The notes beneath the pieces are model-generated. The model ran no database searches. It was not told the origin of the DNA and saw nothing but the letters and a program-made list of their open reading frames with translations. A stretch of DNA of 64,000 bases from Methanobacteriota archaeon (GTDB taxonomy: Archaea; Thermoplasmatota; Poseidoniia; Poseidoniales; Thalassarchaeaceae), in NCBI GenBank assembly GCA_018650285.1, contig JABIGF010000028.1, forward strand, positions 68,359 to 132,358, read 5' to 3'. Shown piece by piece: positions 807 to 59,126 of the stretch. Position numbers and translations under genes: made by a program. Position 1 is the first letter of the stretch; the number at the start of each line of letters is the position of its first letter.

Positions 807-955
807 TTACTATTATATTCAAAACCCCTCCTTTTGGGGCATGATTCAGCAATACTTAGATGTCTAACCGAATGATGCTATCGGTTCACACAATAGGCAA
901 AGGTCTTGAAGCCGTCGTCGCCGGCCGACCGATGTTAGTAGGAACAGGTGGTTTA

Positions 956-1747
956 ATGTTGGAACTAGAGGGGAAAACTGCACTAGTCTTTGGTGTCGCA
1001 AGTGAAGAAAGTATTGCGTGGGCTATTTGCGAGCAATTAGCAGCGGCTGGATGCAAACTAATTCTTGGGTTTCAAAAGAGATTCATGAGTAGAGTATTCC
1101 AACTCAAAGATAAGTTGGACGCAATAGAAGCATTCTATCCAATTGATGTTGCGACAAATGAATTGACTGCTGAATTTTTCACCGAATGGCAGGCTGCAAA
1201 CCCTGGTGCGAAAGCTGACATCATCATTCATGCAATCGGATTTGCTCCCAAAGAATGTTTTGACCGTCCAACACTTTTCGTAGACAATGAACCAATGAAT
1301 ACAGCGATGACAATCAGTGCCCATTCGCTTCAAAGGGTGATGCGTCATGCATTACCACACCTGGCATCTAATTCATCAACCATCACTTTGACATACGCCG
1401 CATCTACAAGATGGGTTCCAAATTATGGTATCATGAGTATTGCTAAAGCGGCCCTTGAAGCGTGGACAAGGGAACTTGCCAACAATGTTGGACCAGATGG
1501 TCACCGAATTAATGCGATTTCATCAGGGCCTATCAAAACACTAGCAGCAGGAGGAATTCCTGGTTTTGATGATATTTTATACCATGTTGAGAGAAATGCA
1601 CCACTACGAAGAAATGTAACTCAGAAAGATGTTGCCGGTTGTGCAACTTGGTTAGCATCTCCGATGTCTTCTGGTGTAACGGGACAAATAATTCATGTTG
1701 ATGCTGGTTATTCTAGCATCATGGTCCCAGATAGCATTTCTGATTGA
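956..1747 (+). CDS. fabI: Enoyl-[acyl-carrier-protein] reductase, FabI type (SDR)
   Basis: The N-terminus MLELEGKTALVFGVASEESIAWAI matches the FabI glycine-rich NAD(P)H motif. PNYGIMSIAKAALEA carries the FabI Y-x6-K catalytic pair, and INAISSGPIKTLAA matches the FabI lid. The ORF is open from an ATG at 860, but the ATG at 956 has AGGTGG 5 nt upstream and aligns with FabI N-termini. Confidence 0.85.
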   Translation: MLELEGKTALVFGVASEESIAWAICEQLAAAGCKLILGFQKRFMSRVFQLKDKLDAIEAFYPIDVATNELTAEFFTEWQAANPGAKADIIIHAIGFAPKECFDRPTLFVDNEPMNTAMTISAHSLQRVMRHALPHLASNSSTITLTYAASTRWVPNYGIMSIAKAALEAWTRELANNVGPDGHRINAISSGPIKTLAAGGIPGFDDILYHVERNAPLRRNVTQKDVAGCATWLASPMSSGVTGQIIHVDAGYSSIMVPDSISD

Positions 1748-1752
1748 GGTGA
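1746..1752 (+). promoter_or_regulatory. Shine-Dalgarno site (GAGGTGA) for the megasynthase, overlapping the fabI stop codon
   Basis: GAGGTGA lies 4-5 nt upstream of the ATG at 1757. It is complementary to the canonical 16S rRNA 3' end. It indicates fabI and the megasynthase are co-transcribed and translationally coupled. Confidence 0.6.
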
Positions 1753-1756
1753 AAAA

Positions 1757-4700: not shown

Positions 4701-7700
4701 CGTTGGAAGTTTGGCAGACAGGTTCGAAAGCCTCAGTTACATCTGCAGCAAGTTCTGCAGAGATGGAAGATTTGCGGGTTCGAGCCCGCCCGCTTCCTAG
4801 TAGTGGTGTCACTAGTCATTCAGCGCCACAAACTAACACGCCATTTGCCGACTCAGTAGTAGAGGAGTTGGTAGACAAAGAGGGTTATTTGGCACATCGT
4901 ATTTCTGAGCTTTCTGGATATCCTACTCGCCATGTTAGGGGGGAACTTGATTTGAGCACATTTGGAATCGCCGGTGCATCTTTGACCAGTTTACTGACGA
5001 AAATTGCAGCAGAAGCAAATGTTTCGGGACCAGCAGATGCTAGTCAACATACCACATTAACGGCTCTTAATGAATGGGTATTATCTCCGCCTACCGGTTT
5101 TACAATTTCTCGTAAAGTCAAGGGCGGTGGTAGCGCTAGTCAGAGTGTAGTTTCTTTGGACTCAATGGCTGAACGTAAAGCGAATCCATATGTCGTAACA
5201 GGAGTGAGCCTCGGATTACCCGGTTTGAGTGAGGTTTTCGCGCCCGATGCACTTGAGCGAATTGTTGCAGGTGAGAATTTTATCAGTGAACTTCCTGATG
5301 AGGTCAAGCAGCGATTATTGGACAAAAATATGGTAAGGATTGTCAAGCATCAAGATGGCCGCGCTGAATTTGTTGCTTGTGATTCGTTTGCAACAATTCC
5401 TCAACTTGCTGGCGTGGGTGGTTACTTTGACTTGGCAGAACAGTATGGTGTAGATGAAAAAATTGTGGCGGCGATGGATATTGCAACCACTCTGTCATTC
5501 GCCGCTGGCTTGGAAGCATTAACCGATGCAGCACTTCCATTGTTACCTGTTGAACAGGTGAGTAGTGTTGGAAAGAGGTTGATTAGAGGTTGGAATCTAC
5601 CCAATTCAATTCGAGAAAGAACCGGTGTAGTGTTTGCTTCGGTATTCCCTGGAATTGCTATGGCTATGCGGCACGCTTTGAATAACGGAGCGGATGAGAA
5701 TGGGACTTTTGATAGACGCTTCCTTCTTCAAGTTTTGACAATGGGGCATGCTCAATTCGCTCAATGGATTGGGGCGCGTGGGCCAAATGCTGCGATTAAC
5801 AATGCTTGCGCATCAACACCTGCAGCCTTCGCAATTGCTGAAGATTGGCTGGCAACCGGCCGCTGTGACCGAGTTATTGTGATTAGCGGTGATGATTCAA
5901 CTGGCGACGATTTGATGGAGTGGATCGGCGCAGGTTTTGCCGCTGCTGGCGCCCATTCAATGGGCAATGTAGTTGAAGAAGTCGCTTTACCATTTGATGC
6001 ACGCCGAAATGGAATGTTACTTGGAATGGGTGGTGCAGCTTTCGTCATAGAGAAATCATCTCATGCAAATGAGAGAGGTGTTGTACCATATGCTGAACTG
6101 TTGGGTGCACATATTGGCAACTCAGCATTCCATCCAACACGTTTGGATGTAGAACATGTCGTGACCACATTTGATAATTTTGTCACAAATATGGAAAATC
6201 GTTGGGGGATTGACCGACATCAAATTGCTCCAAAAACGACCTTCATGTCACACGAGCCGTTCACTCCACCGCGTGGTGGTTCTGCAGCAGCAGAAATCGA
6301 ATCACTACGCGGGGCATTCAAGGAATCTGCTGAGCAGGTCATTATTACCAATACGAAAGGTTTCACTGGACATCCAATGGGCGTAGGTATTGAAGATGCT
6401 ACTGGATTGTATGCTCTTGCATCTGGGAGATTACCACCTATTGCTAATTTCAAAGAACCAGATGAGTCGTTAGGCAATCTCAGATTATCTGAAGGTGGTG
6501 AATATGATGTTGAATATATGTTGAGACATGCTGCTGGATTTGGTAGCCAAATTGCCTTGACAATGTTCAAGCGAATTGCTCGTACACTAAACCGAGTTGA
6601 CCGTGAAGCGGTCATTCGTTGGGCTGCAATTGAGGCTGGAGATGATGTTGAATTGCGTTTGCTGAAACGCAAATTGGTTGCATATGTTTCTCCTGATGAC
6701 TCATTGATAGGTGGTATGGAAGGAAACGAATGGGTTGTTTCTGCCCAAGATGCAGCGCCAGAAAATCAAACCGTAGAAATCCATATAGAAAAGCCCGTAG
6801 AAGTTGTAGCACCGATGCCAACTCCTGAGCCTGATGAACCAGTATCAAAACCCGCTCCAACAATAGTTGGTGGCACTTCACCCGATATTGAGGCGAAGGT
6901 GATTGAAACAGTAGCGGAGCATACAGGTTATCCTGCTGATTTCATAGAACTCGACCAAGATTTAGAGGGTGAGTTAGGAATTGATACAGTCAAACAGGCA
7001 GAAATAATGGCCGATTTAAGAACTGCATACTCATTGCCAGTTGATGATACGTTCCAATTGCGAGAACATCCGACATTGAACCATATGATTGCTTACATCG
7101 TTCGTATGAATGGGGATTCAGAATCTTCCGAACATCAGCCTTTAGAGCCTGTTGAGGATGAACAAACATCAGGTGAAGAGGAAATTGAGTCAATAGATGA
7201 GAATCAATCTGACGACATATCGCCGCCCATTCAGTCAGCAGCCGTGGATAGTGATGTTGAAGCAGGAGTCCTTGAAATTGTGGTAAAACACACTGGTTAT
7301 CCCGAAGATTTTCTTGAATTAGATCAAGACTTGGAAGGTGAATTGGGTATTGATACAGTCAAACAGGCTGAGATTATGGCTGATTGCCGAGAGCGCTATT
7401 CACTTCCAGTAGATGAGGAATTCCAGTTACGAGAGTATCCAACCTTAGCCCACATGATTGGTTATATCATCTCAATGAGAGGTGATTCTGCTACCGTTGA
7501 AACAATTGATGAAATAGAAACGGAGGAAGTGGTGGAAATTCAATCTGATGAAGAACCAGTTGAGAAGCCCTCTACCGACGCCATTGAAAGTGGCGTCCAC
7601 CGTTGGGTTGTAGAAGTTGAAGAGGCAGAACTAGGTCAAGCCCATCCACTTGATATGGGTGGCTCATATGTTATCGTTACAGATGATTCATGGGGCTTGG

Positions 7701-10198: not shown

Positions 10199-10227
10199 AA
10201 AATTAATTTATCAATTGAGGAATTACA

Positions 10228-10926
10228 ATGTGGGAACCAGTCGGAAAACCTACTTTTCTAGACCTTCCAAAAGGTGCTCACCAAGAGTCAATAGCCGCAT
10301 GGATTGAAGTGCGTCCAACTTCTCCTATGGATCCTGTTCCCGATGTATCTGCACAGAGGTTTGTTGATTCAATTGAAGCATCTAAATTTGCCATGGCGAA
10401 AAGGGCTGAGGAGCATGCCGCCGCTCGTTGGTTAGTTGAATACCTATTATTGGAGAGTGGTCGCAATCCTAAACTGTTCAAAATTCAACGTGATGATTAC
10501 CGTCGCCCTCGCCTCATAGGTCAAAATGCCCCATCTATGACAATCACTCATAGCGGTGGGATTGCTGCAGTATTACTAGGTCCCAAGGATATTGATATTG
10601 GATTAGATTTGGAACCATTGATGCCTCGTCCTAGGAATATTCTCTGCATGATGTCTTCTGGCAAGGAGAGAGCTGAACTTGAATCTCTATATGATGAAGA
10701 TGAGAAGAACGCTTCTTCTCAAACCACAGATGTGTGGGTTGCTAAGGAGGCAATACAGAAGGCTGCAGGGCTTGGGATGGGTCTTCCTCCTCAATCGTTT
10801 GAGGTGTATGGGCGTAATGTGGTCAATGTTGGTATTGATGGCGTCAATAATATTTTCAATCTTCATTGCTGGAAAGCAAATCTCAATGGTCAATTAACTT
10901 CATTGGCCATTGCAGAAAAGGTCTAA
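10228..10926 (+). CDS. 4'-phosphopantetheinyl transferase, Sfp/PfaE type
   Basis: ITHSGGIAAVLL...DIGLDLE and WVAKEAIQKAAG correspond to the PPTase G-x-D-x-E and W-x-x-KEA-x-x-K motifs. A GAGG site lies 7 nt upstream of the ATG, and the gene starts 29 nt after the megasynthase stop. Confidence 0.85.
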   Translation: MWEPVGKPTFLDLPKGAHQESIAAWIEVRPTSPMDPVPDVSAQRFVDSIEASKFAMAKRAEEHAAARWLVEYLLLESGRNPKLFKIQRDDYRRPRLIGQNAPSMTITHSGGIAAVLLGPKDIDIGLDLEPLMPRPRNILCMMSSGKERAELESLYDEDEKNASSQTTDVWVAKEAIQKAAGLGMGLPPQSFEVYGRNVVNVGIDGVNNIFNLHCWKANLNGQLTSLAIAEKV

Positions 10927-13546: not shown

Positions 13547-13617
13547 GCGTCCATGATGTAGGGGTAGCATCAGAGGTTTCCAACCTCTTCGCCCGGGTTC
13601 AAATCCCGGTGGGCGCA
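13547..13617 (+). tRNA. tRNA-Gly (anticodon UCC), 71 nt, no encoded CCA, no intron
   Basis: Folded by hand. The acceptor stem is GCGTCCA/TGGGCGC, 7 bp with one G-U pair. The D arm is ATGT-AGGGGTA-GCAT. The anticodon arm is AGAGG-TTTCCAA-CCTCT, giving anticodon UCC. The variable loop is TCGC, the T arm is CCGGG-TTCAAAT-CCCGG, and the discriminator is A. Confidence 0.88.
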
Positions 13618-34957: not shown

Positions 34958-35677
34958 TCACAAATCTGACAGAGTATTTCTAACTGCATCTCGCCAATCA
35001 GCGCCACCGTTTCGGTTGGAAAAAGGGCTAGCAGGTGATGGATGTGGTATTCTTTCGATTTCAATATCTATGCCAATAAGTGCTTTCTTGGCTTGCTTTT
35101 CGGCATAAGCACCCACCCCAATCACTTTTTTTGCATCAAGAATCTCAACCACATCTCTAAGATGTTGGTCACAGAGTGAGAGCAGGTCTTTTGCTGCAGT
35201 TCCGCTTAATTTGTCAGGGGTCAAATTTTTGCCATTGTCATCAAACATTAACAGCGGACAGTGGTTGACAACGAATAATTTCTGATGAGATAATTCGGCA
35301 CTACCAAACATCTCCTCAATAATGCTCCAAAGGCGAGTTCCAGAAACTTCATTCCTCGTTGAATCAAGTCCAATAACTGGGCGCTTCTTATGCAACCTTG
35401 GTGGTTGTTTTACTTCACCTTGTAGCCCGAGATAACTGATAGTTTTGTCAACATCTCCGAAAGGAACACCTGTTTGCCCCATCCCCCATGGCCCCGGGTT
35501 CATCCCTAGAAGTATGGTTTTAGCGCCCAATTCGCCATATTTGGTGAGGTAGTGGTTGTGTACTTCCCACGCATAATTAAGAGGATTGTATACCATTGAT
35601 ACCGGTTTTGACAATTTAGAAGAGAGTGCATCGCACGCTTGCGAGAGGCTCTTTGCCGCCATAGCTAACTCATTCAA
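34958..35677 (-). CDS. SMUG1-type uracil-DNA glycosylase (UDG family 3)
   Basis: Both family-defining motifs are present: LLGMNPGPWGMGQTGVPFG and IPHPSPASPFSN. The TTG start is preceded by GGAGGTG and overlaps the upstream stop by 4 nt. Confidence 0.85.
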   Translation of the reverse strand: MNELAMAAKSLSQACDALSSKLSKPVSMVYNPLNYAWEVHNHYLTKYGELGAKTILLGMNPGPWGMGQTGVPFGDVDKTISYLGLQGEVKQPPRLHKKRPVIGLDSTRNEVSGTRLWSIIEEMFGSAELSHQKLFVVNHCPLLMFDDNGKNLTPDKLSGTAAKDLLSLCDQHLRDVVEILDAKKVIGVGAYAEKQAKKALIGIDIEIERIPHPSPASPFSNRNGGADWRDAVRNTLSDL

Positions 35678-37326
35678 TCCACCACCTCCAATACTTGCAA
35701 AGCCAACTCCGGCGCATCAATATTTACTGATGTAAACGCCTCTTCAACAGAGGAGAATTGTTTGCCGCGGTGTTGCCTTTTTACTCGCTCACTGATTAAT
35801 TTCCAAGCAGATTTTTCTCCTATTCCAGTTATTGCTTCTAACTGTTTTTGACTTACTGTATTTATGTCAAGAGATGCTTCAACTGCTGACATTGATCTCT
35901 TTCCGTGGCCAGTGATAATGACATCTGAAATCGACTCAAGTGGAATATGATATGGTACTCCAATAAGGATTGGATAGGCGCCAATTTGACGGCCAAAGGT
36001 GACACCAGACCCACCTCTACAAGATTCACTTCTGTGATTTTCGTCAGTTACATTGCTAGGCATCCTAATCCGTTCGTCATGACTTTCCCAGCGTACTTGA
36101 CCCAATTTTTGACCAAGAGGAAACATTTCTTGAAGCAGTGGCGCATCAATTTCATCACGAACCCACTCTTTGAACTCACTAAATTCAGGTTCAGATATTT
36201 CTTGAAATCCCTCACCTTCGACTTGGCGGATATTGATTCTCCGCAACCAAGCACCATTTTCTCGTAATTCTGTAAGGAGTTGTTGATTCAATTGGTAAGT
36301 ATTTGCTGTTTCACCGTTCAATCCAGCAATGAAATTCAAGCCCGGTAGTAGTTTTGGTAATCCTCTAGGCCCCCTTTCACGACCAAATTTATTGATATGC
36401 TCAACTGCACTTTTCAATTGTTTTGAATCACAGTTTAGCCAGTTTGCTGCATGTACATTAGGGTCAGCAGATTCCAATCCAAAAGAGAGAACACTACCAT
36501 CGCTGAGCGTTTCTATCAGTGTGTTGGTAATCTCACCAGCCAATTCAAGATGCTCAGCGATGATACTTGGATTTGCATTATCAGTATGCAGAATGTCAAG
36601 TCGTTCATCATCTCTTAATCCATGCAATAGTTTTGCTAATGGTTTTGGGTTTGGTTGCGGATATTCTAGTTCAACCACGCCATCAGCCATGTAGGTGTAA
36701 ATGTCGGTCATGCCGCCCAGTCTCACGTTTGTAACGCCGGAATCAAGGGCAATTTCAACTTCTTTGATGACCTCTTCAGGGCTTCTCCATATCGGTACAC
36801 CCTTCTTGGGTTCAATACAAAATTTGCATCCCCGTTTGTATCTAACACAGCCTTGGTAAACTTCAACTTCGTAGGTTAGAGGTCCGAGTATCTTCTCATC
36901 CTCTCTCATGATTACTAGATCAGGATGCTCTAGAACAGCCTTTGATGCTGCTCCATGATTTGCCCACAAATTCCACTGTTCGTGGTTTCTTCTTTGGTGT
37001 TTGAATTCACCATTTTCAAGAAAATAATTCAGAGTAGCATCAGTATCTTGGACGCAGAGAAATAGATTGGCTCGTAATGGAGTCCACCCTTGTTGCCTCC
37101 AGCCTCGAACCGCCCATCCACCAGCAATCATCGGTACATTTCGTGGCACAGTGCGTAGAAGTTCATCTGTTTCCCGCAATGAAACAGGTGTGCCACGCAG
37201 GTATTTTCCTGGGACGATTGCTCCAGCAAGGAGGACAATCCCTTCACATTCGGATAAATCAGGCCGCCTACCAAGTCGCCATTGGTCAATAGTGACATAG
37301 TCATAGTCTAGATTTTTTGATTCCAA
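35674..37326 (-). CDS. Radical-SAM-superfamily protein with a C-terminal helix-hairpin-helix (HhH) motif (archaeal family of unknown function)
   Basis: The Cys cluster is GCVRYKRGCKFC. A TIM-barrel-like core has GLESADP, and the C-terminal HhH is LEAITGIGEKSAWKLI. The called start is a TTG. The frame stays open upstream to about 37428 and encodes the conserved-looking segment LVIDGYEDEPAAFGVPPYIG (see findings). Confidence 0.75.
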   Translation of the reverse strand: MESKNLDYDYVTIDQWRLGRRPDLSECEGIVLLAGAIVPGKYLRGTPVSLRETDELLRTVPRNVPMIAGGWAVRGWRQQGWTPLRANLFLCVQDTDATLNYFLENGEFKHQRRNHEQWNLWANHGAASKAVLEHPDLVIMREDEKILGPLTYEVEVYQGCVRYKRGCKFCIEPKKGVPIWRSPEEVIKEVEIALDSGVTNVRLGGMTDIYTYMADGVVELEYPQPNPKPLAKLLHGLRDDERLDILHTDNANPSIIAEHLELAGEITNTLIETLSDGSVLSFGLESADPNVHAANWLNCDSKQLKSAVEHINKFGRERGPRGLPKLLPGLNFIAGLNGETANTYQLNQQLLTELRENGAWLRRINIRQVEGEGFQEISEPEFSEFKEWVRDEIDAPLLQEMFPLGQKLGQVRWESHDERIRMPSNVTDENHRSESCRGGSGVTFGRQIGAYPILIGVPYHIPLESISDVIITGHGKRSMSAVEASLDINTVSQKQLEAITGIGEKSAWKLISERVKRQHRGKQFSSVEEAFTSVNIDAPELALQVLEVVD

Positions 37327-37491
37327 GACGCCACAGATGTAACGTATGTGAAATCCAATGTATGGGGGGACACCAAATGCTGCGGGTTCATCTTCGTAAC
37401 CATCGATAACTAGCCATGTCAGATGAATCCCCCCTGCCTGCGGGTAGGGTCATCAGTTGTCAGCAATTCCCTTGCTGATGCAATAATTGGC

Positions 37492-38793
37492 TCAGCGGCG
37501 TTCTCTACGATTATCTCGGCCTCGGTTTCCGCCACCGCGTCCACCACGCCTGTCGCCACCTCGGCCACCGCCAGATTTCGCTTCTTGGACGGTTAATTTA
37601 CGACCGCCCAACTTTAGATTCTTCAGATTTGGAAGCGCTTTCTTTCCAGTAGCATGGCTAGCATAAGTGATGAAAGCAAACCCTTTGCCCTGTCCTGTTT
37701 CTCGGTCAGTTGCAATATGTACTTCTTTCAATTCACCATGTTCTGCAAATAATGCAGTGAGTTCTTCTTGGTCAGTTTCGTAAGGCAATCCACCAATGAA
37801 CATCTTGAATCCAGCCGTTTCTTGGCCTGCCGCTTTTGCAGCAAGTAGAATTTTTCTTTCTGCAGCTAACTCATCAGGTGTTGCTTCACCATCTTCGATT
37901 TTAGCCATGCATGGTCGACAGCGAATTGGTTTTCCAGGTGTAGGCTTGAATGGTACTTCGCAATCATCCGAACAAAGTGTACACTTTGTCTTGTGCATCT
38001 CTCGACGTGGTCTGCTATCACGACCTCCACGGCCACCACCACCACTACCACGTCCAAGGAATTGTTTTGGAATTTCATGAACTGAACCGCGACGATAGTC
38101 TGCCAATGGTGAAAGATATGGGCGTGAACCATCGTGTGAAAGGCGAGCCTCTGCATCAGAAGACCAGCGCTCACCACCACGGTTGAGGGCACTGTTTCCA
38201 CTTCCTTCTTCGAAGAAACCGTGGCCGTAATCATCTGCTAATCCACGGTATGCGGTATAGTCACAGCGAGTGCAAGCGACATTGAAATCATCAACAGCAT
38301 CACTTGGCACTAATATTTCGCCACATGCTGGGCATGCTGCATGAAGTACACCATAACGTGCCTTGGTTTTTGTTGAGAGACGCATTACTGGCTTAGTTTG
38401 AATCACCTCAGCACGAATAACATCGTTGAGTCGCATTGCATCTCCTGGGGCAGGGAGGAATCTGTCAACAACTTCTGCGACAAAGACATCTCCGAATAAT
38501 TGCTCAGCAGGAAGGTCGCGAATTGGCTTTCCTTCTACATGTAATATTTTGATTTCAGCAGTCTTTGTTTGTAATCTAGCGACTTGACCAATCACTACAT
38601 CTCCGACTTCAGGAAGTCTTGGGCCATCGGTAGCAGGTGAAACAGTTACACATTCTCCATCTAATGCAACTATCCCTATTCGTGTAGCGACTAGTGAACC
38701 TTCTACTTCGGCAACACCAGTGCCAGCATCTCCTGAGAGACTGATCTTCTCTCCTGGGGTGACAAACTCCCCTTCACTAACTGAACTTGACAT
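37492..38793 (-). CDS. csl4: Exosome cap subunit Csl4 fused to a zinc ribbon, an RRM domain and RGG boxes
   Basis: Residues 1-182 form a Csl4 N-domain, an S1 domain and a CPAC...CTRC zinc ribbon. Residues 246-264 are Arg/Gly-rich. Residues 271-295 are CTLCSDDCEVPFKPTPGKPIRCRPC. Residues 329-406 form an RRM with RNP-2 (MFIGGL) and RNP-1 (KGFAFITY). Residues 407-433 form the RGG tail (GGGRGGDRRGGRGGGNRGRDNRRERR). Confidence 0.85.
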   Translation of the reverse strand: MSSSVSEGEFVTPGEKISLSGDAGTGVAEVEGSLVATRIGIVALDGECVTVSPATDGPRLPEVGDVVIGQVARLQTKTAEIKILHVEGKPIRDLPAEQLFGDVFVAEVVDRFLPAPGDAMRLNDVIRAEVIQTKPVMRLSTKTKARYGVLHAACPACGEILVPSDAVDDFNVACTRCDYTAYRGLADDYGHGFFEEGSGNSALNRGGERWSSDAEARLSHDGSRPYLSPLADYRRGSVHEIPKQFLGRGSGGGGRGGRDSRPRREMHKTKCTLCSDDCEVPFKPTPGKPIRCRPCMAKIEDGEATPDELAAERKILLAAKAAGQETAGFKMFIGGLPYETDQEELTALFAEHGELKEVHIATDRETGQGKGFAFITYASHATGKKALPNLKNLKLGGRKLTVQEAKSGGGRGGDRRGGRGGGNRGRDNRRERR

Positions 38794-38875: not shown

Positions 38876-39526
38876 CTACTTATTTGGGGTCAATCGCCAA
38901 AATGCGGCCTGAGTTTTGTTTCTTTGCGATGTGTGGTGTTCAAAATTTGCTGGAAGAGCGAAGTCAGCGACACCATATTTTTCAGCATTCCATCCTGCAT
39001 CGGAGAAGAATGGTTCGATATGTGTCGCTTTGGCGCTGTGAAGAAGATGAGCAGTTGCTCCACAATCTATTATCGCTTGGAAAAAAGGTCGGTCAGCATG
39101 CATCTTTTGTCGACCCCAAGGTGGATTTGTAATTACTAAATCAACATCTGAGATATGATGCAGTTCTGCCTCAAGTATGGAGGCTAAATCATCTGCTCCT
39201 ATCGTTGCATGTATGGGGACACCCATCTCCCAGAAACCTTCACCCTTTAGGTTCGATTTTGCTACACCCCATGCTTCTTCATCGGCTTCGATTGCAAGTG
39301 CTTTTCCTGCACCTAAAAGCAATGCTCCGACCGCCATGATGCCATTGCCACAACCAAGGTCGGCAACCATGCAATCTTGAGTTAAATCACCAAACTCAAT
39401 GATGTCCATTAGCCAGCGTGCCGCAAGTTCACCTTCAATGCTGTATTGCTCTAATTCAACATTATTGCAGGGGTGTTGCTCCAACTGTGATAGCGTGATT
39501 GCGAGTTGCTTTAGCCCCCCTGCCAT
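38876..39526 (-). CDS. SAM-dependent N6-adenine-type methyltransferase (METTL5 / predicted RNA methylase family)
   Basis: The SAM motif is VADLGCGNGIMAVG and the catalytic tetrad is ITNPPWG. It lies directly upstream of csl4, a neighbourhood I recall as recurrent in archaea. Confidence 0.75.
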   Translation of the reverse strand: MAGGLKQLAITLSQLEQHPCNNVELEQYSIEGELAARWLMDIIEFGDLTQDCMVADLGCGNGIMAVGALLLGAGKALAIEADEEAWGVAKSNLKGEGFWEMGVPIHATIGADDLASILEAELHHISDVDLVITNPPWGRQKMHADRPFFQAIIDCGATAHLLHSAKATHIEPFFSDAGWNAEKYGVADFALPANFEHHTSQRNKTQAAFWRLTPNK

Positions 39527-48508: not shown

Positions 48509-49528
48509 TTATTCACTCAAGAATTCTTTGAGATTTCTAATCGCACCGATTGCACTAGGATCCTTTCCACGCAAAATTGCCACAGCACATGAAATCCAAT
48601 CCATGGCAATGCAAGAGTATAGCATTGCTTCAAGCAGTGATTCGCCTTCACAATGAAGTTGCCAAGCAATCTCAACATCAACATTATCCATCATCCATTC
48701 AACTCGCTTGGCAGTACGTTCATGCATACCACTCCAAGTCAAGAAAATTAGTGTTTGACTTTGTTTTGCGGCTTCTTCAGTCCAAGCGATAATCTCATTA
48801 TGGTTCATTTCAGGTAGTGTATTTGAACGAGCGAAAACTCCACCATTCTCATTCAATTGATTGACAAAACGGGTGCCGGCACAATCTAATTCGTGGGCGG
48901 TAACAATTCCAATTTCCTTGTCAATCATTGTCTGTGCAAGAGATAGTGTTGGTGAGTCTGGATTATTGACAAAATCAAATTCTTCAACGGTTTCTTGTAA
49001 TCTTTCTTGTAATCCCGTTAATTCTTCATAATTAACAACGCCATTCATACTTGCATTTCGTAACAGTGCCCCAAAGAGGTGGCCAAAAGCTGAACGAGGT
49101 GGTTGCCCACTAGGGACAGAGATATGGTTGGGATAAGTTGACAATTTGCCGCCACTTGAGATGACAGTAAGAGAAAGATTTCTTTCAACTGCTTTTGCAA
49201 CCCCATCCAAAGTTTCCTCAGTATTACCTGAATAGGATGTTGCGACAACATTTACTTCACTATTTGTCCAATTAGGTAAACCATAGTTTCTCCAAGTTGT
49301 CACTTGACTGTTGCCATCGTAATTTGCTAGTGATGCAAGAAAATCTCCAGCCGCTGCAGAACCACCCATGCCTAGGCAAAGTAAGTTCCGTGGCACATTT
49401 GTATTTGTGTCCATTTCTTCATTTTGGGCCATTTGTGCCATGAAATCACTAGGGAATTGGCGAAGGAATCCTAGCATATCTTCACTATCTAGTGAAGCAA
49501 CTAATTGTGAAATATTTGGTTCACTCAT
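48509..49528 (-). CDS. Bifunctional phosphoglucose/phosphomannose isomerase (SIS domain)
   Basis: It has LGMGGSAAAGDFL and ATSYSGNTEETL. The ATG at 49528 overlaps the NMD3 stop (ATGAGTGA). The track ORF extends to 49570. Confidence 0.8.
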   Translation of the reverse strand: MSEPNISQLVASLDSEDMLGFLRQFPSDFMAQMAQNEEMDTNTNVPRNLLCLGMGGSAAAGDFLASLANYDGNSQVTTWRNYGLPNWTNSEVNVVATSYSGNTEETLDGVAKAVERNLSLTVISSGGKLSTYPNHISVPSGQPPRSAFGHLFGALLRNASMNGVVNYEELTGLQERLQETVEEFDFVNNPDSPTLSLAQTMIDKEIGIVTAHELDCAGTRFVNQLNENGGVFARSNTLPEMNHNEIIAWTEEAAKQSQTLIFLTWSGMHERTAKRVEWMMDNVDVEIAWQLHCEGESLLEAMLYSCIAMDWISCAVAILRGKDPSAIGAIRNLKEFLSE

Positions 49529-50585
49529 CGTTGGCACCACCCGTGATTGCAGGCAGAGCGACCCATTCATCGCCTATGAAACCGATGCGGATAGAACTCT
49601 GAATACCATCATCATCATAGGGAAGTGATACAGTCTTGACTTTCCAATCATTTGTATCCATGAATTCGGCAGCAGATGAATCACGATTCAACAACTCAAC
49701 ATCAATTTGCTCAACATATCTGCTAACGACAGTAGTCTTCTCAAGGTCACGCCATGTCAAACCAGTTCTTTCTTGCCGGTCAACAGCAGTGATAACAGCG
49801 CCTTCTTTTTGCCATGAATAAATTAGCCAATACCTATCTTTTCTGCGAATTACATCCCCGATATCAAATGCTGGTTTACGATAAGAGATGGTCAATCGAG
49901 TGAGGTCTTCTCCGTCTTTGCGGCCAACGATTGAGTTGGTTTCTTTTGAGGTGCCACCGAATTTTCTCAAGAGATGTTTTGTCCATCCCCGAGCCAATGC
50001 TTTGCTACCAAGTACCATGTCGTAACCACCTGGTACATCACCTTCATTGTTAATGAAAAATAGAGGGTCTGGGTCAATACTGTCAATGTAGTTGTCAAAT
50101 GTTGTACGTACAGCTTTTACTTCATCTTCACCGAGTCGACGACCAGATGATCTCAGTTGCACGGTCGCCTCGAAATAATTGCCAGCCTTGCGCGTGCAAG
50201 TTGGACAAACAGCGTTGGAAATACGAACCATTGTTGAATGTATAGTTTCAAATTCAATTTCTTCAATGAATCCTGAAACTTGCACTGAAATCCTAGTATT
50301 CCGGTCATCAATTGGCTGGTGTAACATGGCGATGCCTAGGGCATTTGTTCTGCCATCTACTTCCAATACCTCTTCAATTAATCCCTCTTGATATTCTTCA
50401 TCTGTATGGTGTCCCCATCTTTTTGCGTGTAGATACATCATACATTTTGGACAACGATATCCTTGGACGGTTTCTGGAAGTTTTGAGAGTGTAGTGCGTT
50501 GTTTGAAACAAGGGATACAGAGGCGCTCAGTGGTTAGTTCACCTTCGGCGCCACAGAGGACACAAAATGCTCCGCCTAGTGCCAT
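49521..50585 (-). CDS. NMD3-family ribosomal large-subunit biogenesis/export adaptor homologue
   Basis: The N-terminal Cys clusters are CVLCG...CIPC and CPKC...C. The length is typical of archaeal NMD3. The ATG at 50585 follows AGGAGGGGG. The ORF is open from a GTG at 50639. Confidence 0.8.
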   Translation of the reverse strand: MALGGAFCVLCGAEGELTTERLCIPCFKQRTTLSKLPETVQGYRCPKCMMYLHAKRWGHHTDEEYQEGLIEEVLEVDGRTNALGIAMLHQPIDDRNTRISVQVSGFIEEIEFETIHSTMVRISNAVCPTCTRKAGNYFEATVQLRSSGRRLGEDEVKAVRTTFDNYIDSIDPDPLFFINNEGDVPGGYDMVLGSKALARGWTKHLLRKFGGTSKETNSIVGRKDGEDLTRLTISYRKPAFDIGDVIRRKDRYWLIYSWQKEGAVITAVDRQERTGLTWRDLEKTTVVSRYVEQIDVELLNRDSSAAEFMDTNDWKVKTVSLPYDDDGIQSSIRIGFIGDEWVALPAITGGANDE

Positions 50586-50717
50586 TCCGCCCCCTCCTGA
50601 TGGTTTTGGGCCGTGTGTAGTGCGCTTGAATCCTTGCACGAGAATATTGTTAGCGCATCTATCGCAGAGATATACTCAGTATCTATTATTGAGGTATTAT
50701 TGGACATATAGTTAGCG

Positions 50718-54152: not shown

Positions 54153-54254
54153 AATGATGATTTTACTCCTATGGAGTAACTAGTTTGCAAGCGAACTAAT
54201 GGCAATCGTGCTTATATCACACTTCGGAGTCTTAGACTCCGTCAGGTGGGACTC

Positions 54255-57200
54255 ATGAGCGGACAGCAGAGTAAATGGGCTTTCGTCCTTGTACTCATAT
54301 TGCTTTTACCCACTGTCATATTGTCACTGACTAGCGACCCAATTGATGGCCAACTTCCTTCTTTGTTGGATGATCCAAAAAGAGAATCTCCCGTATTGTC
54401 AAATGAACCAATTCTCATTGATGGTTTGCCCCCGCTAATCTGTCCTAATGGATTGATTTGTCCCACTCCCGAAAGGATGCCAGATATTCCGACAAATAGT
54501 TGGACACATGAGGACCCACAATGGTGGTTTAGATATGGTCCAGATTTGGATTGGAACGGGATGGATGATCGATTACAATACATCTTGGCCGATGTTTATC
54601 CTTCACAATCGCCAACAGCAATTACCGGTGAGGACGGTAGGCTCACACTTGCTTTAGTAATCGATTTTGCTTGGCATCCAGAATCTTCTGAAATGGCCCA
54701 AGTTGAAGAAATTCTTCTCCGCCACGGATGGGTCGGCCAAGAGGGTGGTGCAATGTTTTTCACCGTAGGGGAGATTGATTCTATTATCGTCGATAAAGTT
54801 CCCCAAAGTGCATTGATGGAATTGTATCACCTTGAGGGGGTTGTAGTGATTGAGCAACAAAATGTGATGGTTCCTTCAATGGCTGTAGCATCTCGTGCAG
54901 TCAAATCCAGGTCGAGTGAAACTTACACTAGCGCTGCCGATATGATGGGTATCAGAGGAGATGGTGTTGTAATTGCAGTGCTTGATTCAGGTGTTGATAA
55001 TGAACATCGTTCATTGAATGATTTCGATGACGTCAATGATGCACCTGATGCAGACGCGGAGTCGTACAGTGACCAGAAGTGGCTGGCAGGTTTTGATTCA
55101 ACAGATAATCTCAACAGTCAGACGACGGATGGTTCGGTTGACCCTGATGATACAGCAGGCCACGGCACTCACGTTGCTGGAATCGCGATAGGTACAGGAG
55201 ATGCTAGTCGCAATCATGTTGGTATCGCTCCAGGTGCTTACCTTGTTGATGTCAAGGTGTTTACAGACATTGGTCGCTCTAATTCACAATATACAATTTC
55301 TGGAATGAATTGGACTATCAACAACAAGAATACCGATTGGGGTAACAATGCTTCTAGCAATGGTATTGATATTATGTCAATGTCTTTTGGACGAGCACGC
55401 TCACCAATAGGTGGACAAGATACAGGCGACAATGGTTCTGATGCAGAGGCACGTTTGGTGAATGATGCTTGGGATGCTGGTATTGTGCCAGTTTGTGCTA
55501 TGGGCAATGATGGTGCAAATTATGTTGCAAGTCCAGCCTCGGCTGACCATTGTATTGCTGTTGCAGCATCAGATGATTTAGACACCGTTGCCCGTGGTGA
55601 TGATGTTGTTGCAAGTTACTCTAATTGGGGGCCACGTCAAGATGACGGCGATTCAGACCAATGGGACGAATTAAAACCAGATATAATTGCTCCAGGGTCA
55701 AACATCAATTCAGCTCAGCATGCAGCAAGTGGGCCGATTGGTGGTAGCACGGTTTTAGCAGATGACCAATACACCTCAATGTCTGGAACAAGTATGTCAA
55801 CGCCTGTTATTTCAGGAATATGCGCACTGATTCTGCAAGCAAATCCTCAGTTTGAGCCTGCTGATGTCAAATCGGCTCTTCAAAATTATAGCGAATTTAT
55901 TGTTGATGAAGAGGAATCAATCAATGGCCAATCATGGAATGCTAGCGAAGGATTTGGTAGAGTTGACGCTATTCAAGTGCTTGAACAGAGCGGTGGTGGT
56001 GGTGGTGGTGGTAGGGTCAATCTAACATTACCAACCAATGGCACTTGGATGAATGTTGGCGACACATATCGTTTGAGAGGCAATGCATCGATTCCTACTG
56101 AGGAATTATTTGATTCAAATAATAGTATCACATCAATAAAAGTTTCAGCGAGGTATACTTACTGGACTTCAAACGGTAACGGATATAGTTTCAATAACAG
56201 AACCGCATTTTCTTGGATTAATGCTACAGGGATTGAAGATTGGACATTTGACTTAGGTCCAGAATTGTGGCATGATGGGGCTGGCTTGTATGTGGAAGTA
56301 CGCGCCTTAGATAATCTTGGGAGATGGTCACAGCCGGCATGGGCAGAGTACTACATCGGTCAATCTTCACTAACACTTGTTGAGCCAAGTGGACATGGTT
56401 CGGTGTCAGGTGATGTTGAATTAAAGGGTGAATACAAAGCAGTTTACGGCGACCGAATTGAATACAAAATTGGTCAAGATGGTGATTGGCAGGTAGCTAC
56501 GAGCAATATTGTCTATCCTTATGTTTGTGTAGAATCAGAAAAGGATGATTGCAGTGCGCGTGATTGGTCTGCGACATGGGATTCAACAACCGTTCAAGAT
56601 GGTGGTTGGGTGATGTATACTCGCTTAGTATCAGACAATGGTTGGGCGAGTGATCCAATTGAACGCTATGTCAATGTAGACAATATTCCTGCTGCATCCG
56701 ACCTTGAAGCGATTGGTAGTATTGTAGTATCCGATAATGGAATCCCTGTAGATTCAGCCTATATTGACTCCTTCCTAAATATTGGTGTTACTGTGAGAAA
56801 TAGTGGAGATGCACATGCTCGTAATTTTGATGTGACTCTGTATGAAGATGGTTCACAAATTGCAACACAATCAATCAATAAATTAGATTCAACAAAATCT
56901 ATTGAATTAGTATTAGGATACCATCCCACGACATCTGGTAACCACGAGTTGAAAGTTCTCATTGACCCTAGTAATAAAGAAGAAGAATCACGCGAAGATA
57001 ATAACGAGTATCTTCTTTCATACCCAATAAATGAACGACCAAATGGTGTTGATTTAGCACTTAGAAAAGGTGCTGCAAAGACTAACCCTCCAGTCCCTAA
57101 TCCAAATGGAGACATTACGCTCAATATACGGGTTGAAAATCTTGGTGGAGATTCGGCTTCGGGTGCTACATTCAAACTTGAAATGTGGAGCGAATTAGGT

Positions 57201-59126
57201 TGGGAATCACTTGAAAGTGGTAGAAGTTTGAATACAGTACCACAAGCAAGTTATGTGGATGTGCCATTTACTATTCATGAAGGAATGCTTGATGTAGGTT
57301 CTGTGAAATTTAGAGCAACAGCCACCTATGATGGGGGGATTGATATTGATGCTGACAATAATCAACTTGAATTCACAATACTTGTTGATGAATCTCAATT
57401 GCAAGGGGCGCGTAGCCTTGATCTTCCAGATGGACATGATGTGCTTGGGTTCTTTGGGGTAAGTGGGGAAAACCTCCTCTTTACTGGTGAGGGCTCTTCA
57501 GTTTGGGTTCATCGGATTAATTCTCAATACGACCTTATTACTTGTCTTGAGTTAGAGGATGATTGGGCTGGCGAATTTGAACTAGACCAAGGTGAATCTG
57601 ATAGTACTTATGTTACTTGGACCCGCCGTTTTACTGACCGTTTTGGAGTTACACAATCTACTCTTTCCTTTGCAGCAATTGACCTTTCTTGTACGAGTTC
57701 TGAACCCTTTGATTTAATGACACCTTTGATGCTTGCAGAAGGCACGTATTGGGGAATAGATATCTCAATGAATGAGGGAGAAGCTCTCATTGGTGGTTAT
57801 CACCGTGACCTCTTTACTGATGGAAGTTATGATGATGAAACATCAATATTCATATTGGCGGCTGAATCTCCTCTTGATAGCGATTCTTGGAATTTGACTG
57901 AAGATGTAATCCCTATTTTGGAACCTCCAATTGGTCAAGTTGGTAGTGTGAATGTTGCACAAGGGGATGATTGGACTCATATTACATTTCAGGCGACTAG
58001 AGATGATGAAACAGCAATTGAGCGCGTCGGCACATTCTATGCGCATGGAAGGCTAGGTCAAGAAAACTGGTCATTCCATATTGCAGTTGGCGACGAGACA
58101 ACAATTAGTGAATTAGCCATCTTAACCAATGATGATGGTAAAGATGTTGTAGTAATGGCTTGGAGTGAAGGCTATGGCCACGATTCACAACTTGTTGTGA
58201 CTAGAGCAGATAGCAGCATGCAGGACCAAGTCGTTGAATCTGTAAATGCTCCTGGATTGTCAGGGCTAGAATTTGTTCTTACCGCTAGAGGTATTCAGTT
58301 ATTCCATGATTCGGTTGGGCCATCAGGAAGGCAAATCATCTACTCTCTTATTGATGATAATAATACGATGGTTGGGACACCTATAGGTGAAGGTGATTTG
58401 ATGATGGTTGGGCGTTCTGATAGTTCAGGTGAAACCCATATTTTCTATCTTTCACCTACTCAAGATTGGCGAGCAAGGATGTTAATTGATGATAGTGCTT
58501 TGAATGGAGCTAATAATGGCATTCTTGATACAATTAGATTGTGGACTGGATTGGATGAAAGAACATTTGATTTGGCTTGGAAGATCGCTCTTCTTGTTTG
58601 CGGAGTAGGTTGTCTATTGATGTTTTTAGCCTCAGCAGGAATCATCACTCATCGCCGTAGGTCGGGTCCAAAATTAACTGTTGAAGTTGAAGATGAATAT
58701 GATGATGAAATCATTGATGTTGATGACGATTTTGTATCTCTAATTGATGAGCCATCTATTCCCGCAGTTGAGGATTCTAAGCCGGTGGTTGAAATTGATG
58801 ACGACCCTCTCTCAACTGAAATTCTTAGTGATGAAACTGAAGCAGAAGATGATGTTGATGATGGGTCTGGTAGTTCTAAACGCCGTCAGCGCCGTCAAGC
58901 ACGAAGGGAAGAGGTTGAACCAACATCAGTTGACCTACCTCCTCCTCCATCTCCTGCAGAAATAATTGAAGAATTACCTCCCCCTCCTTCGCCGATGGAA
59001 TTAGGAACCCTTCCCCCACCGCCAGGTCGTGATATCGTCTGTGAGTGTGGTGCAAGCTTCAAAATCAAGACAATTGAATTGAAGTATGTAGAATGTCCTG
59101 TGTGTTCAGAGAGAATTAATTTGTGA
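54255..59126 (+). CDS. Giant membrane-anchored subtilisin-like (S8) serine protease with CARDB-like domains and a cytoplasmic Pro-rich / zinc-ribbon tail
   Basis: The protease has a signal sequence. The catalytic triad motifs are VLDSGVDNEH, GHGTHVAGIA and MSGTSMSTPVISG, within about 54940-55990. Two CARDB-like Ig domains contain VTVRNSGDAHARNFDVTLYEDG and NIRVENLGGDSASGATF. A TM helix lies at about 58570-58650. The tail contains acidic and PPPPSP repeats and C-x-C...C-x-x-C. The ORF is open from a GTG at 54246. Confidence 0.9.
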   Translation: MSGQQSKWAFVLVLILLLPTVILSLTSDPIDGQLPSLLDDPKRESPVLSNEPILIDGLPPLICPNGLICPTPERMPDIPTNSWTHEDPQWWFRYGPDLDWNGMDDRLQYILADVYPSQSPTAITGEDGRLTLALVIDFAWHPESSEMAQVEEILLRHGWVGQEGGAMFFTVGEIDSIIVDKVPQSALMELYHLEGVVVIEQQNVMVPSMAVASRAVKSRSSETYTSAADMMGIRGDGVVIAVLDSGVDNEHRSLNDFDDVNDAPDADAESYSDQKWLAGFDSTDNLNSQTTDGSVDPDDTAGHGTHVAGIAIGTGDASRNHVGIAPGAYLVDVKVFTDIGRSNSQYTISGMNWTINNKNTDWGNNASSNGIDIMSMSFGRARSPIGGQDTGDNGSDAEARLVNDAWDAGIVPVCAMGNDGANYVASPASADHCIAVAASDDLDTVARGDDVVASYSNWGPRQDDGDSDQWDELKPDIIAPGSNINSAQHAASGPIGGSTVLADDQYTSMSGTSMSTPVISGICALILQANPQFEPADVKSALQNYSEFIVDEEESINGQSWNASEGFGRVDAIQVLEQSGGGGGGGRVNLTLPTNGTWMNVGDTYRLRGNASIPTEELFDSNNSITSIKVSARYTYWTSNGNGYSFNNRTAFSWINATGIEDWTFDLGPELWHDGAGLYVEVRALDNLGRWSQPAWAEYYIGQSSLTLVEPSGHGSVSGDVELKGEYKAVYGDRIEYKIGQDGDWQVATSNIVYPYVCVESEKDDCSARDWSATWDSTTVQDGGWVMYTRLVSDNGWASDPIERYVNVDNIPAASDLEAIGSIVVSDNGIPVDSAYIDSFLNIGVTVRNSGDAHARNFDVTLYEDGSQIATQSINKLDSTKSIELVLGYHPTTSGNHELKVLIDPSNKEEESREDNNEYLLSYPINERPNGVDLALRKGAAKTNPPVPNPNGDITLNIRVENLGGDSASGATFKLEMWSELGWESLESGRSLNTVPQASYVDVPFTIHEGMLDVGSVKFRATATYDGGIDIDADNNQLEFTILVDESQLQGARSLDLPDGHDVLGFFGVSGENLLFTGEGSSVWVHRINSQYDLITCLELEDDWAGEFELDQGESDSTYVTWTRRFTDRFGVTQSTLSFAAIDLSCTSSEPFDLMTPLMLAEGTYWGIDISMNEGEALIGGYHRDLFTDGSYDDETSIFILAAESPLDSDSWNLTEDVIPILEPPIGQVGSVNVAQGDDWTHITFQATRDDETAIERVGTFYAHGRLGQENWSFHIAVGDETTISELAILTNDDGKDVVVMAWSEGYGHDSQLVVTRADSSMQDQVVESVNAPGLSGLEFVLTARGIQLFHDSVGPSGRQIIYSLIDDNNTMVGTPIGEGDLMMVGRSDSSGETHIFYLSPTQDWRARMLIDDSALNGANNGILDTIRLWTGLDERTFDLAWKIALLVCGVGCLLMFLASAGIITHRRRSGPKLTVEVEDEYDDEIIDVDDDFVSLIDEPSIPAVEDSKPVVEIDDDPLSTEILSDETEAEDDVDDGSGSSKRRQRRQARREEVEPTSVDLPPPPSPAEIIEELPPPPSPMELGTLPPPPGRDIVCECGASFKIKTIELKYVECPVCSERINL
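55992..56012 (+). repeat. (GGT)7 trinucleotide microsatellite encoding a Gly7 linker in the S8 protease
   Basis: Seven perfect GGT copies were read directly. The repeat is in frame, between the protease domain and the downstream beta-rich domains. Confidence 0.9.

Follow-up and report, generated by a model that had tools for sequence, protein, structure and literature searches.

Little is understood of how the archaeal exosome selects its substrates; the specificity factors known so far are Rrp4, DnaG and SmAPs. In eukaryotes, RNA is brought to the exosome by the adaptors NEXT (RBM7, ZCCHC8), TRAMP (Air1/2) and Nrd1-Nab3, which use RRM or small zinc-knuckle modules; these adaptors are separate proteins, recruited via the Mtr4 helicase. 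Canonical archaeal Csl4 (arCOG00676), as represented by A. fulgidus AF0206 (PDB 2BA1) and S. solfataricus Csl4, is a three-domain protein of about 180-200 residues. It terminates right after its zinc ribbon, as for instance in P0173, and its genomic partner is a METTL5-like methyltransferase. The Csl4-containing archaeal exosome gains extra RNA-binding capacity and a poly(A) preference from DnaG, a separate TOPRIM protein that acts in trans and attaches via Csl4 (PMC3672285, PMC4227792).

Two other groups of small proteins are relevant here. Single-RRM glycine-rich proteins (the NF058537 family, cyanobacterial Rbp, CIRBP and GRP7) are free-standing proteins of about 90-170 residues in which a canonical RRM is followed by a Gly/Arg-rich tail. 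CxxC-x17-CxxC small zinc proteins (TIGR04272/PF23477), such as M. mazei A00184 and A01980, are also stand-alone; zinc binding has been demonstrated for two M. mazei members (PMC12704099). At the locus described here, carried by a 64-kb stretch of DNA (hereafter the window), such modules are covalently part of Csl4: an RRM with a Gly/Arg tail forms the C-terminal part of this probable exosome subunit, and a finger with the same domain model and the same cysteine spacing is embedded in the fusion. In the literature searched, no description of a Csl4-RRM fusion was found.

Organization of the csl4 gene and its product

The gene (positions 37492..38793) lies on the minus strand, as do all the features discussed below. 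It is a single, uninterrupted ORF running from an ATG at 38793 to a stop codon at 37492-37494 and encoding 433 residues. Public databases contain a protein 100% identical to its product under the name "exosome complex RNA-binding protein Csl4".

Residues 1-190 (38224..38793) form the Csl4 core, in line with the initial annotation, which had recognized a complete Csl4 at the N-terminus. The match to the NCBIfam equivalog NF034126 (104.7 bits, cut-off 90) covers residues 9-190, corresponding to positions 1-179 of the 180 of the model. In a PDB sequence search, A. fulgidus Csl4 (2ba1_A) was matched over residues 10-192 (E 1.1e-10), and the same structure was the top Foldseek match of the AF2 model (E 5e-15, target TM-score (TMt) 0.69, 187 columns). 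As in canonical archaeal Csl4, the fold comprises an N-terminal domain, an S1 barrel and a C-terminal four-cysteine zinc ribbon. The cysteines of this ribbon (CPAC...CTRC, residues 154-177, 38263..38334), C154, C157, C174 and C177, are invariant in an alignment of 96 homologues, on which all the invariance figures below are based. Conservation, expressed as the mean column majority frequency of a segment, is 0.64 for the N-terminal and S1 domains. The core is nevertheless markedly divergent from canonical Csl4 (104.7 versus about 170 bits): all Poseidoniia variants score 92-105 bits against NF034126, compared with 170 for a canonical Thermoplasmata Csl4.

The protein exceeds a canonical Csl4 by 243 residues, which carry four extra elements beyond the core. 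Just after the ribbon comes a conserved motif of 47 residues (196-242, 38068..38208) reading LNRGGERWSxxAExxLSHDGSRPYLSPLADYRRGxxHE, with the family consensus LNRxGERW...RPYLSPLADxRRG. Its conservation (0.72) is higher than that of the N-terminal and S1 domains, and N204, R205, G207, W210, G222, R224, Y226, S228, D232, R234, R235 and G236 are invariant. The LNxxGxRW half is common to all long Csl4 variants. In the AF2 model, pLDDT is 75/67 for residues 201-220 and below 50 for residues 221-238. No family model matched the motif. A profile built on it retrieved four short MGII fragments only among 5.8 billion proteins, the shortness of the query making this a weak test. The following segment (residues 243-263, 38005..38067) is a variable linker of 21 residues, among them 8 Gly and 6 Lys+Arg, with a conservation of 0.52 and a pLDDT below 50. 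An Arg/Gly-rich segment had been proposed to follow the ribbon; this description holds for residues 243-263 but overlooked that residues 196-242 are a conserved, non-repetitive motif.

Residues 264-298 (37900..38004) correspond to a treble-clef zinc finger, C271-x2-C274-x17-C292-x2-C295, matched by PF23477 zf_Tbcl_2 (37.9 bits, cut-off 27) and by TIGR04272 CxxC-x17-CxxC (40.4 bits, cut-off 36), in agreement with the second zinc-binding module announced earlier. Its four cysteines are all invariant and it is the most conserved segment of the protein (0.78). A helical connector (residues 299-328, 37810..37899) leads to the RRM, the AF2 helices spanning residues 293-300 and 306-327 with a pLDDT of about 80.

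The RRM (residues 329-405, 37579..37809) has intact RNP-2 (MFIGGL) and RNP-1 (KGFAFITY), as first read from the sequence, and a profile scan detected it readily: Pfam RRM_1 (PF00076) matches residues 332-400 with 62.4 bits (cut-off 20.7). Among the RNP aromatics, F332 and F374 show no variation, and at least 90% of the homologues retain F372. The predicted elements (E329-334, H342-350, E355-362, E369-377, H380-390, E401-404) follow the beta-alpha-beta-beta-alpha-beta topology, and with Foldseek this part reaches a TMt of about 0.9 to the RRMs of ELAVL1 and U2AF65 (0.86-0.91 for the RRMs of 4fxv and 5w0h). To our knowledge, the RRM is otherwise nearly absent from archaea, and the general view assigns it to eukaryotes and bacteria. 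The highest-scoring NCBIfam model here is NF058537, "RNA-binding regulator" (67.7 bits, below its own cut-off of 100), which we take to be bacterial; orthologues with two RRMs score 110-116 bits against it. The RRM is genuine, but its presentation as a eukaryotic hallmark was thus too strong.

The protein ends with a basic Gly/Arg tail (residues 406-433, 37495..37578) containing, as had been claimed, RGG repeats. RGG occurs at residues 255, 411, 416 and 419, the last three falling within the 28 residues of the tail, which also has 11 Gly, a net charge of +8 and a pLDDT below 50. Across orthologues the strict RGG box is not conserved, many MGIIb tails being short and basic without RGG (P0073, P0079, P0042); the basic composition is kept while the sequence varies (conservation 0.43).

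Overall, the AF2 model consists of folded beads with a pLDDT of about 80-88, separated by low-confidence linkers (pTM 0.40-0.42). The computed pI is 4.65 for the acidic core and 9.59 for the basic arm. GC3 is uniform, the core having 0.28 and the extension 0.30; as there is no compositional break, there is no support for a recent gain of the extension by horizontal transfer.

Conservation and genomic context

The extended protein had been considered as a feature of one gene. The fusion is real, but it is clade-wide, with family-specific exchanges of modules. It is found, with one frame kept, in at least 117 full-length homologues and in 202 GTDB species genomes, and the ORF is unbroken in hundreds of independent assemblies, which settles the question of continuity raised at the outset. 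An identical fusion protein is present on two independently assembled contigs, including L001. Among the 120 best homologues, 117 have 418-479 residues and carry both RRM_1 and zf_Tbcl_2, down to 48% identity; the best 80 loci were assigned to Poseidoniales, Thalassarchaeaceae, MGII or a broader archaeal taxon. In distant relatives, identity is higher in the extension than in the Csl4 part. No abundant short Csl4 close in sequence to the 433-residue protein was found. The nearest canonical form is a Thermoplasmata protein of 192 residues (36% identity), and two of the three closest short proteins, both unnamed, proved on checking to be single-member clusters.

The gene lies between two putative RNA-modifying enzymes. 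Directly upstream (38876..39526) is a METTL5-family N6-adenine methyltransferase with an NPPW motif, an assignment already made initially and borne out by full-length PDB matches to PH1948 (E 5.9e-22), Ta1320 and human METTL5 (6h2u, E 8.1e-14). Downstream (35674..37326), a radical-SAM protein (Pfam Radical_SAM, 35.3 bits) carries a C-terminal helix-hairpin-helix, the HHH_3 match being weak (18.2 bits, below the cut-off of 27); no sequence relative in the PDB was found for it at E<=0.1. The true start of this gene is probably near 37420-37428, because the codons for a conserved N-terminus precede the first canonical start codon. The methyltransferase gene is directly upstream of csl4 in all of the 69 testable loci and the radical-SAM gene is downstream in 66 of 68. 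A csl4-methyltransferase neighbourhood is reportedly the usual arrangement in archaea. The order methyltransferase, csl4, radical-SAM is kept around variant architectures, including orthologues with two RRMs: by synteny, the gene occupies the ancestral csl4 locus.

At this locus, Thalassarchaeaceae have a finger plus an RRM, and Poseidoniaceae have two RRMs. In other Poseidoniia-like lineages, the csl4 orthologues carry two zinc fingers or one RRM, and in some other Thermoplasmatota the gene has an RGG tail only. All modules swapped between lineages (RRM, zinc finger, RGG) belong to nucleic-acid-binding types. The variants outside MGIIb terminate in a conserved short peptide, (S/K)RExxAxxEEG. 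In the forms with two RRMs, identities of 27-48% to both do not tell which one is orthologous to the Thalassarchaeaceae RRM.

A free-standing donor gene encoding finger plus RRM was also considered. Two matches of about 150 residues were inspected in their contigs and both were fragments of the fused gene, L002 starting 49 nt from a contig end and L003 being created by a run of N inside the gene; the other short matches of this size lie on contigs of 0.6-8 kb. Similarly, P0317, a "RNA-binding protein" of 115 residues, is identical to the C-terminus of the two-RRM form P0153. The short matches inspected thus gave no sign of a free donor gene.

Possible functions of the extended Csl4

Neither the window with its 10-kb flanks nor 88 related loci showed any exosome core gene: gene tables around the window list none, and a tblastn search with an approximate Rrp41 sequence gave no match in the window plus these 88 loci (1.26 Mb). 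At the level of the clade, exosome core genes are listed (Tully 2019, Suppl. Data 10). The "MGII Core" sheet records RRP4, RRP41, RRP42 and dnaG in 84-93% of genomes, with RRP4, RRP41 and RRP42 in 87-93% of MGII genomes (137-138 and 85-86 genomes), which answers at clade level the initial question on these genes; the supplements of Rinke 2018 have no exosome entries. The same pangenome table has no CSL4 entry (Tully 2019, Suppl. Data 10), and it has family-specific core entries named "CIRBP" (MGIIb; gene cluster GC_00000621) and "PABPC" (MGIIa; GC_00001250 and GC_00006539) (Tully 2019). These entries are probably the fused Csl4 proteins, mislabelled, with the consequence for annotation that CSL4 is missing from the table. 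Taking these data with the domain composition and the conserved locus, we favour, with moderate confidence, the view that the gene is the orthologous csl4 of a Marine Group II (MGII; Poseidoniales, probably Thalassarchaeaceae) archaeon and that its product is a subunit of the exosome cap to which a basic RNA-capture arm is tethered.

The divergence of the core makes altered or lost cap binding conceivable. The protein would then have left the exosome as a free-standing RNA chaperone or regulator, similar to bacterial Rbp or to CIRBP-type glycine-rich proteins, and might take part in the maturation of rRNA alongside the METTL5-like methyltransferase and the radical-SAM protein encoded next to it. 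The equivalog cut-off is indeed barely passed, annotation pipelines name the protein CIRBP or nucleolin, and the arrangement of the three genes is tightly conserved. However, selection has preserved all three Csl4 domains as well as the ribbon cysteines, the clade keeps the core exosome genes with no other Csl4 annotated to cap them, and the proximity of the methyltransferase gene is said to be common to archaeal csl4 in general. A departure from the exosome is thus unlikely.

The protein might also be a cap subunit in which the main task of the arm is to contact proteins, to localise the complex or to self-associate rather than to capture substrates. RRMs and RGG regions can mediate protein contacts too. 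RGG-driven clustering, docking to DnaG, to the ribosome or to the membrane, and autoinhibition of the pore may be envisaged. The highly conserved, non-domain peptide 196-242, with its second half predicted to be disordered, is typical of a docking motif, and the conserved terminal peptide of the variants outside MGIIb points in the same direction. Moreover, Sulfolobus Csl4 is the docking site of DnaG, and much of the exosome is found at the cell periphery (PMC3672285). Against a main role in protein contacts, the RNP-1 and RNP-2 aromatics that stack on RNA are invariant or nearly so, and the modules exchanged between lineages are all of nucleic-acid-binding types. UHM domains, the protein-binding RRM variants, usually lose these aromatics. 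Such a role therefore seems improbable as the main function of the arm.

Finally, although many gene calls of about 150 residues start at Met266 and at least 90% of homologues retain this residue, it is very improbable that the long ORF is an artefact (a chimera or a two-gene read-through), a reading refuted by its recurrence in independent assemblies, or that the C-terminal module is made separately from Met266: the inspected short calls are fragments, full-length homologues keep a single frame, and M-[HY]-x3-C is an integral part of the finger, both repeats of P0149 showing it.

A possible role in substrate recruitment

As a cap subunit with an RNA-capture arm, the product would, like any Csl4, most likely be part of the trimeric S1-domain cap atop the phosphorolytic Rrp41/Rrp42 ring. 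The arm would extend from the C-terminus of the peripheral zinc ribbon. The first half of the post-ribbon peptide probably packs on the Csl4 core, whereas its second half would dock on a partner. Beyond it would follow, in order, a flexible Gly/Arg linker, the treble-clef finger, a rigid helix, the canonical RRM and the disordered, basic tail with its RGG repeats. A complex could bear as many as three arms; these would enrich single-stranded RNA 3' ends around the S1 pore and would thereby add affinity, and probably a sequence preference, to degradation or to A-rich tailing.

Such an arm would work in cis, as compared with DnaG, which works in trans in other archaea, and with the NEXT and TRAMP adaptors of eukaryotes. 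Like DnaG, the arm would be an accessory RNA-binding part of the exosome. DnaG is still encoded in MGII, so the arm is no simple replacement for it. With regard to the eukaryotic adaptors, the finger is not homologous to their zinc modules and the likeness is one of analogy only.

Beyond extra RNA affinity, it may be imagined that the arm is a lineage-specific device for the selection of substrates, as family-specific modules, together with a shared, new post-ribbon peptide that may serve in docking, occur at one csl4 locus. We put this forward as a tentative possibility. If it were true, each family of these archaea would have its own cis-encoded exosome targeting code, and in the arm archaea would have evolved, by convergence, an equivalent of the TRAMP and NEXT adaptors of eukaryotes.

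MGII are among the most abundant archaeal groups of the surface ocean. With the domain assignments made here, canonical RRMs would belong to the core RNA-decay machinery of an archaeal order. In this context, a Csl4 with a built-in RRM and zinc finger offers a natural experiment in exosome substrate recruitment.

A Csl4 protein with a composite extension

The csl4 ORF extends on the minus strand, without interruption, from an ATG at 38793 to a stop codon at 37492-37494 and encodes 433 residues. On all of the sequence, fold and synteny criteria tested, the product is Csl4; it departs only from the description of Csl4 as a single-module protein of about 190 residues. Residues 9-190 match the NCBIfam Csl4 equivalog NF034126 with 104.7 bits (curated cut-off, 90 bits), and Pfam RRM_1 is recognized at residues 332-400 (62.4 bits, against a cut-off of 20.7). 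The 28-residue tail (406-433) carries RGG at 411, 416 and 419, 11 glycines and a net charge of +8; one further RGG is found at residue 255. The Csl4, RRM and RGG elements named in the initial annotation are thus recovered. Its "second ribbon" is a described domain, residues 264-298 matching PF23477 zf_Tbcl_2 (37.9 bits) and TIGR04272 CxxC-x17-CxxC (40.4 bits), both above cut-off. Zinc binding has been shown for two small M. mazei proteins of the CxxC-x17-CxxC type (PMC12704099). The core (residues 1-190) is acidic (pI 4.65) whereas the extension (191-433) is basic (pI 9.59). Among 96 homologues, the RNA-stacking aromatics F332 and F374 of the RRM are invariant and F372 is kept in at least 90%.

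A sequence search of the PDB aligns query residues 10-192 with A. fulgidus Csl4 (2ba1_A, E 1.1e-10) and also retrieves many RRMs. In the AlphaFold2 model, the Csl4, finger, helix and RRM segments are well folded (block pLDDT mostly 73-88), with confidence below 50 at roughly residues 221-260 and at 408-433, and a pTM of 0.40-0.42. In a Foldseek comparison with the PDB, 2ba1_A ranks highest (E 5e-15, target TM-score 0.69) and eukaryotic Csl4 chains come next; with RRMs of ELAVL1 and U2AF65, the RRM segment reaches a target TM-score of about 0.9.

The segment following the Csl4 ribbon had been described as Arg/Gly-rich. This holds for residues 243-263, but most of the segment is a non-repetitive, very conserved motif (196-242), LNRGGERWSxxAExxLSHDGSRPYLSPLADYRRGxxHE, in which N204, R205, G207, W210, G222, R224, Y226, S228, D232, R234, R235 and G236 are invariant in the 96 homologues. 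Mean column conservation is 0.72 in the motif and 0.78 in the finger, as compared with 0.64 in the Csl4 N-domain and S1 domain; variable G/R-rich spacers are confined to residues 243-263 (0.52) and the tail (0.43). With a deeper alignment, residues 201-220 rise to pLDDT 75 and 67 as two short helices, and residues 221-238 and 247-260 remain below 50. From this model, the first half of the motif would pack against the core, with the second half acting as a docking peptide. A Pfam scan found no family model for the motif, the sole match being a weak, sub-threshold one to DUF5558, and a motif profile search, a weak test, gave no match outside the family.

That the long ORF is an artefact, or its C-terminal part a product of internal initiation, is essentially excluded. 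Public databases contain a 100% identical protein, named [quoted passage not shown], the same gene occurs in a second assembly, from ENA, and 117 of the best 120 homologues, down to 48% identity, are full-length (418-479 residues) with RRM_1 and zf_Tbcl_2, in agreement with the initial reading of a continuous ORF. These best homologues bear names such as Poseidoniales, Thalassarchaeum or Poseidoniia. A GTDB scan with one genome per species found a relative in 202 genomes, the best 80 loci being titled Poseidoniales, Thalassarchaeaceae, Marine Group II (MGII) or a broader archaeal taxon. Apparently free-standing finger-RRM proteins of about 150 residues were also considered. Both of the two inspected in their contigs are fragments of the fused gene, one beginning 49 nt from a contig end and the other broken by a run of N; the remaining candidates are all on short contigs. 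The Csl4 part (GC3 0.28) and the extension (GC3 0.30) are joined without a compositional seam.

Gene order and variant forms

As initially proposed, the upstream neighbour (38876-39526, minus strand) is METTL5-like: over its full length it matches PH1948 (E 5.9e-22), Ta1320 and human METTL5 (E 8.1e-14). This methyltransferase gene directly precedes csl4 in 69/69 testable loci, and a radical-SAM gene follows in 66 of 68. The methyltransferase is mosaic when compared with loci L006-L030. In close relatives whose Csl4 core is 74-80% identical (radical-SAM, where present, 73-80%), its identity is 84-93% (L014, L030), 67% (L017) or 41-45% (L006-L012, L015, L016, L018), a pattern suggestive of gene replacement at this site or of two very divergent alleles. 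The first ATG/GTG/TTG of the radical-SAM gene is at 37326, and a conserved N-terminus, WLVIDGYEDEPAAFGVPxYxGFHIRYICGV, is encoded in frame upstream (37327-37449, minus strand), matching the start of a 592-residue homologue in locus L003. The only candidate starts there, ATT (37426-37428) and CTG (37420-37422), suggest either that the gene starts at a non-canonical codon or that its start was misplaced.

Elsewhere in the window, the region 860-10926 (plus strand) encodes a 2813-residue multidomain synthase (two ketoacyl-synthase domains, acyltransferase, PP-binding and KR in precomputed Pfam matches) flanked by a short-chain dehydrogenase (860-1747, plus strand) and a phosphopantetheinyl transferase (ACPS; 10228-10926, plus strand), together a cluster of PKS- or PUFA-synthase-like type, here in the genome of an archaeon. 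NMD3 is a homologue of a ribosome-export/60S-biogenesis factor; a match to it lies in a gene call overlapping the 5' end of a PGI-like gene (48509-49570) and taken to be the ORF 49521-50639 (minus strand). An S8 peptidase with CARDB domains (1626 residues) occupies 54246-59126 (plus strand), and tRNA-Gly(TCC), at 13547-13617, is the only RNA gene.

The Csl4 part alone was searched against 1.84 billion cluster representatives, followed by domain scans and name look-up. Csl4 with two RRMs was found in P0156, whose cluster includes a "Candidatus Poseidoniaceae" member, and in P0161, P0153, P0155 and P0152, named "Thermoplasmatota" or Poseidoniales. P0159 has one RRM. P0157, encoded on a 3.0-Mb contig, combines two fingers with a long RGG region, and P0176, P0188 and P0180, from other Thermoplasmatota, have an RGG-only tail. 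Ordinary Csl4 of about 185-197 residues (e.g. P0173, "Thermoplasmata archaeon") appear from about 36% identity onward. The LNxxGxRW...AE half of the motif is common to all long forms. A short, conserved acidic C-terminal peptide, (S/K)RExxAxxEEG, ends P0156, P0161, P0153, P0155, P0159 and P0157, non-MGIIb forms from outside Thalassarchaeaceae (loci L089-L091); absent from the window's protein, it may be a second docking motif. The conserved gene order (Zn-ribbon protein, methyltransferase, csl4, radical SAM, UDG, AMP-binding) is seen again around the Poseidoniaceae-type two-RRM gene of locus L091 (P0156 cluster); L090 (P0161) has a shorter version, and L089 (two-finger form) keeps the methyltransferase upstream. 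In view of this conserved order, the variants are orthologues with exchanged C-terminal modules and not paralogues.

A proposed RNA-capture arm

No exosome core gene was found in the window, in the 10-kb regions flanking it or in related loci totalling 1.26 Mb, which is expected because csl4 normally lies apart from the rrp4-rrp41-rrp42 operon. The presence of an exosome to cap, which the initial annotation left to be checked, is settled at the clade level: RRP4, RRP41 and RRP42 are in the "MGII Core" with occurrences of 0.87 and 0.92-0.93 (137-138 and 85-86 genomes in the two groups), as is dnaG (0.84 and 0.91); CSL4 has no entry in this table (Tully 2019, Suppl. Data 10; PMC6336850). The "MGIIa-unique Core" lists "PABPC; polyadenylate-binding protein" (0.84, 77 genomes, 0 outside) (PMC6336850). 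Homologues found here carry the IMG names "cold-inducible RNA-binding protein" (P0084, P0115) and "nucleolin" (P0320 and others). From these entries and names, we infer that the CIRBP (MGIIb) and PABPC entries are the Csl4 fusions under a wrong label, best-hit annotation being dominated by the RRM. The same table has "RBM17" (both families) and "HNRNPL" (MGIIb-unique, 118 genomes), a hint of further RRM-like proteins in MGII (PMC6336850); no second RRM was found in the window or related loci.

The zinc ribbon of Csl4 is at the periphery of the cap, and an extension from it would project outward, as a partly flexible stretch of about 70 residues, then the finger, a rigid helix, the RRM and a basic disordered tail. 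In the simplest reading, this would be a tethered arm for RNA capture, present in up to three copies per complex, that would raise the affinity for the substrates reaching the S1 pore and probably add a sequence preference. RRMs and fingers have been swapped from family to family, suggesting that evolution acts on which kind of RNA is captured. In Sulfolobus, the accessory RNA-binding protein DnaG likewise attaches via Csl4 (PMC3672285), whereas here the arm would act in cis. By analogy, it could work similarly to eukaryotic RRM or zinc-knuckle exosome adaptors, but with its modules in cis. Another possibility is that the protein acts outside the exosome, a reading supported by the divergence of the core (all variants score 92-105 bits, a canonical form 170) and by the tight operon that csl4 forms with genes for two putative RNA-modifying enzymes. 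Alternatively, the arm might mediate protein contacts or localisation.

As for the origin of the RRM of the proposed capture arm, its best-scoring NCBIfam model is NF058537, "RNA-binding regulator", presumably bacterial (67.7 bits, below its cut-off; 110-116 bits in the two-RRM orthologues). RRM proteins occur in some bacteria, and eukaryotes probably acquired them from a bacterium (Vosseberg 2023; PMC9887622). It is plausible that the MGII RRMs came from bacteria.

No account of a Csl4-RRM fusion turned up in full-text literature searches; databases already contain the proteins, under assorted names. While the function in RNA capture is what we infer, it is readily testable, and with the fusion a core subunit of RNA decay has been remodelled, under strong selection and throughout the clade, in archaea that are very abundant.
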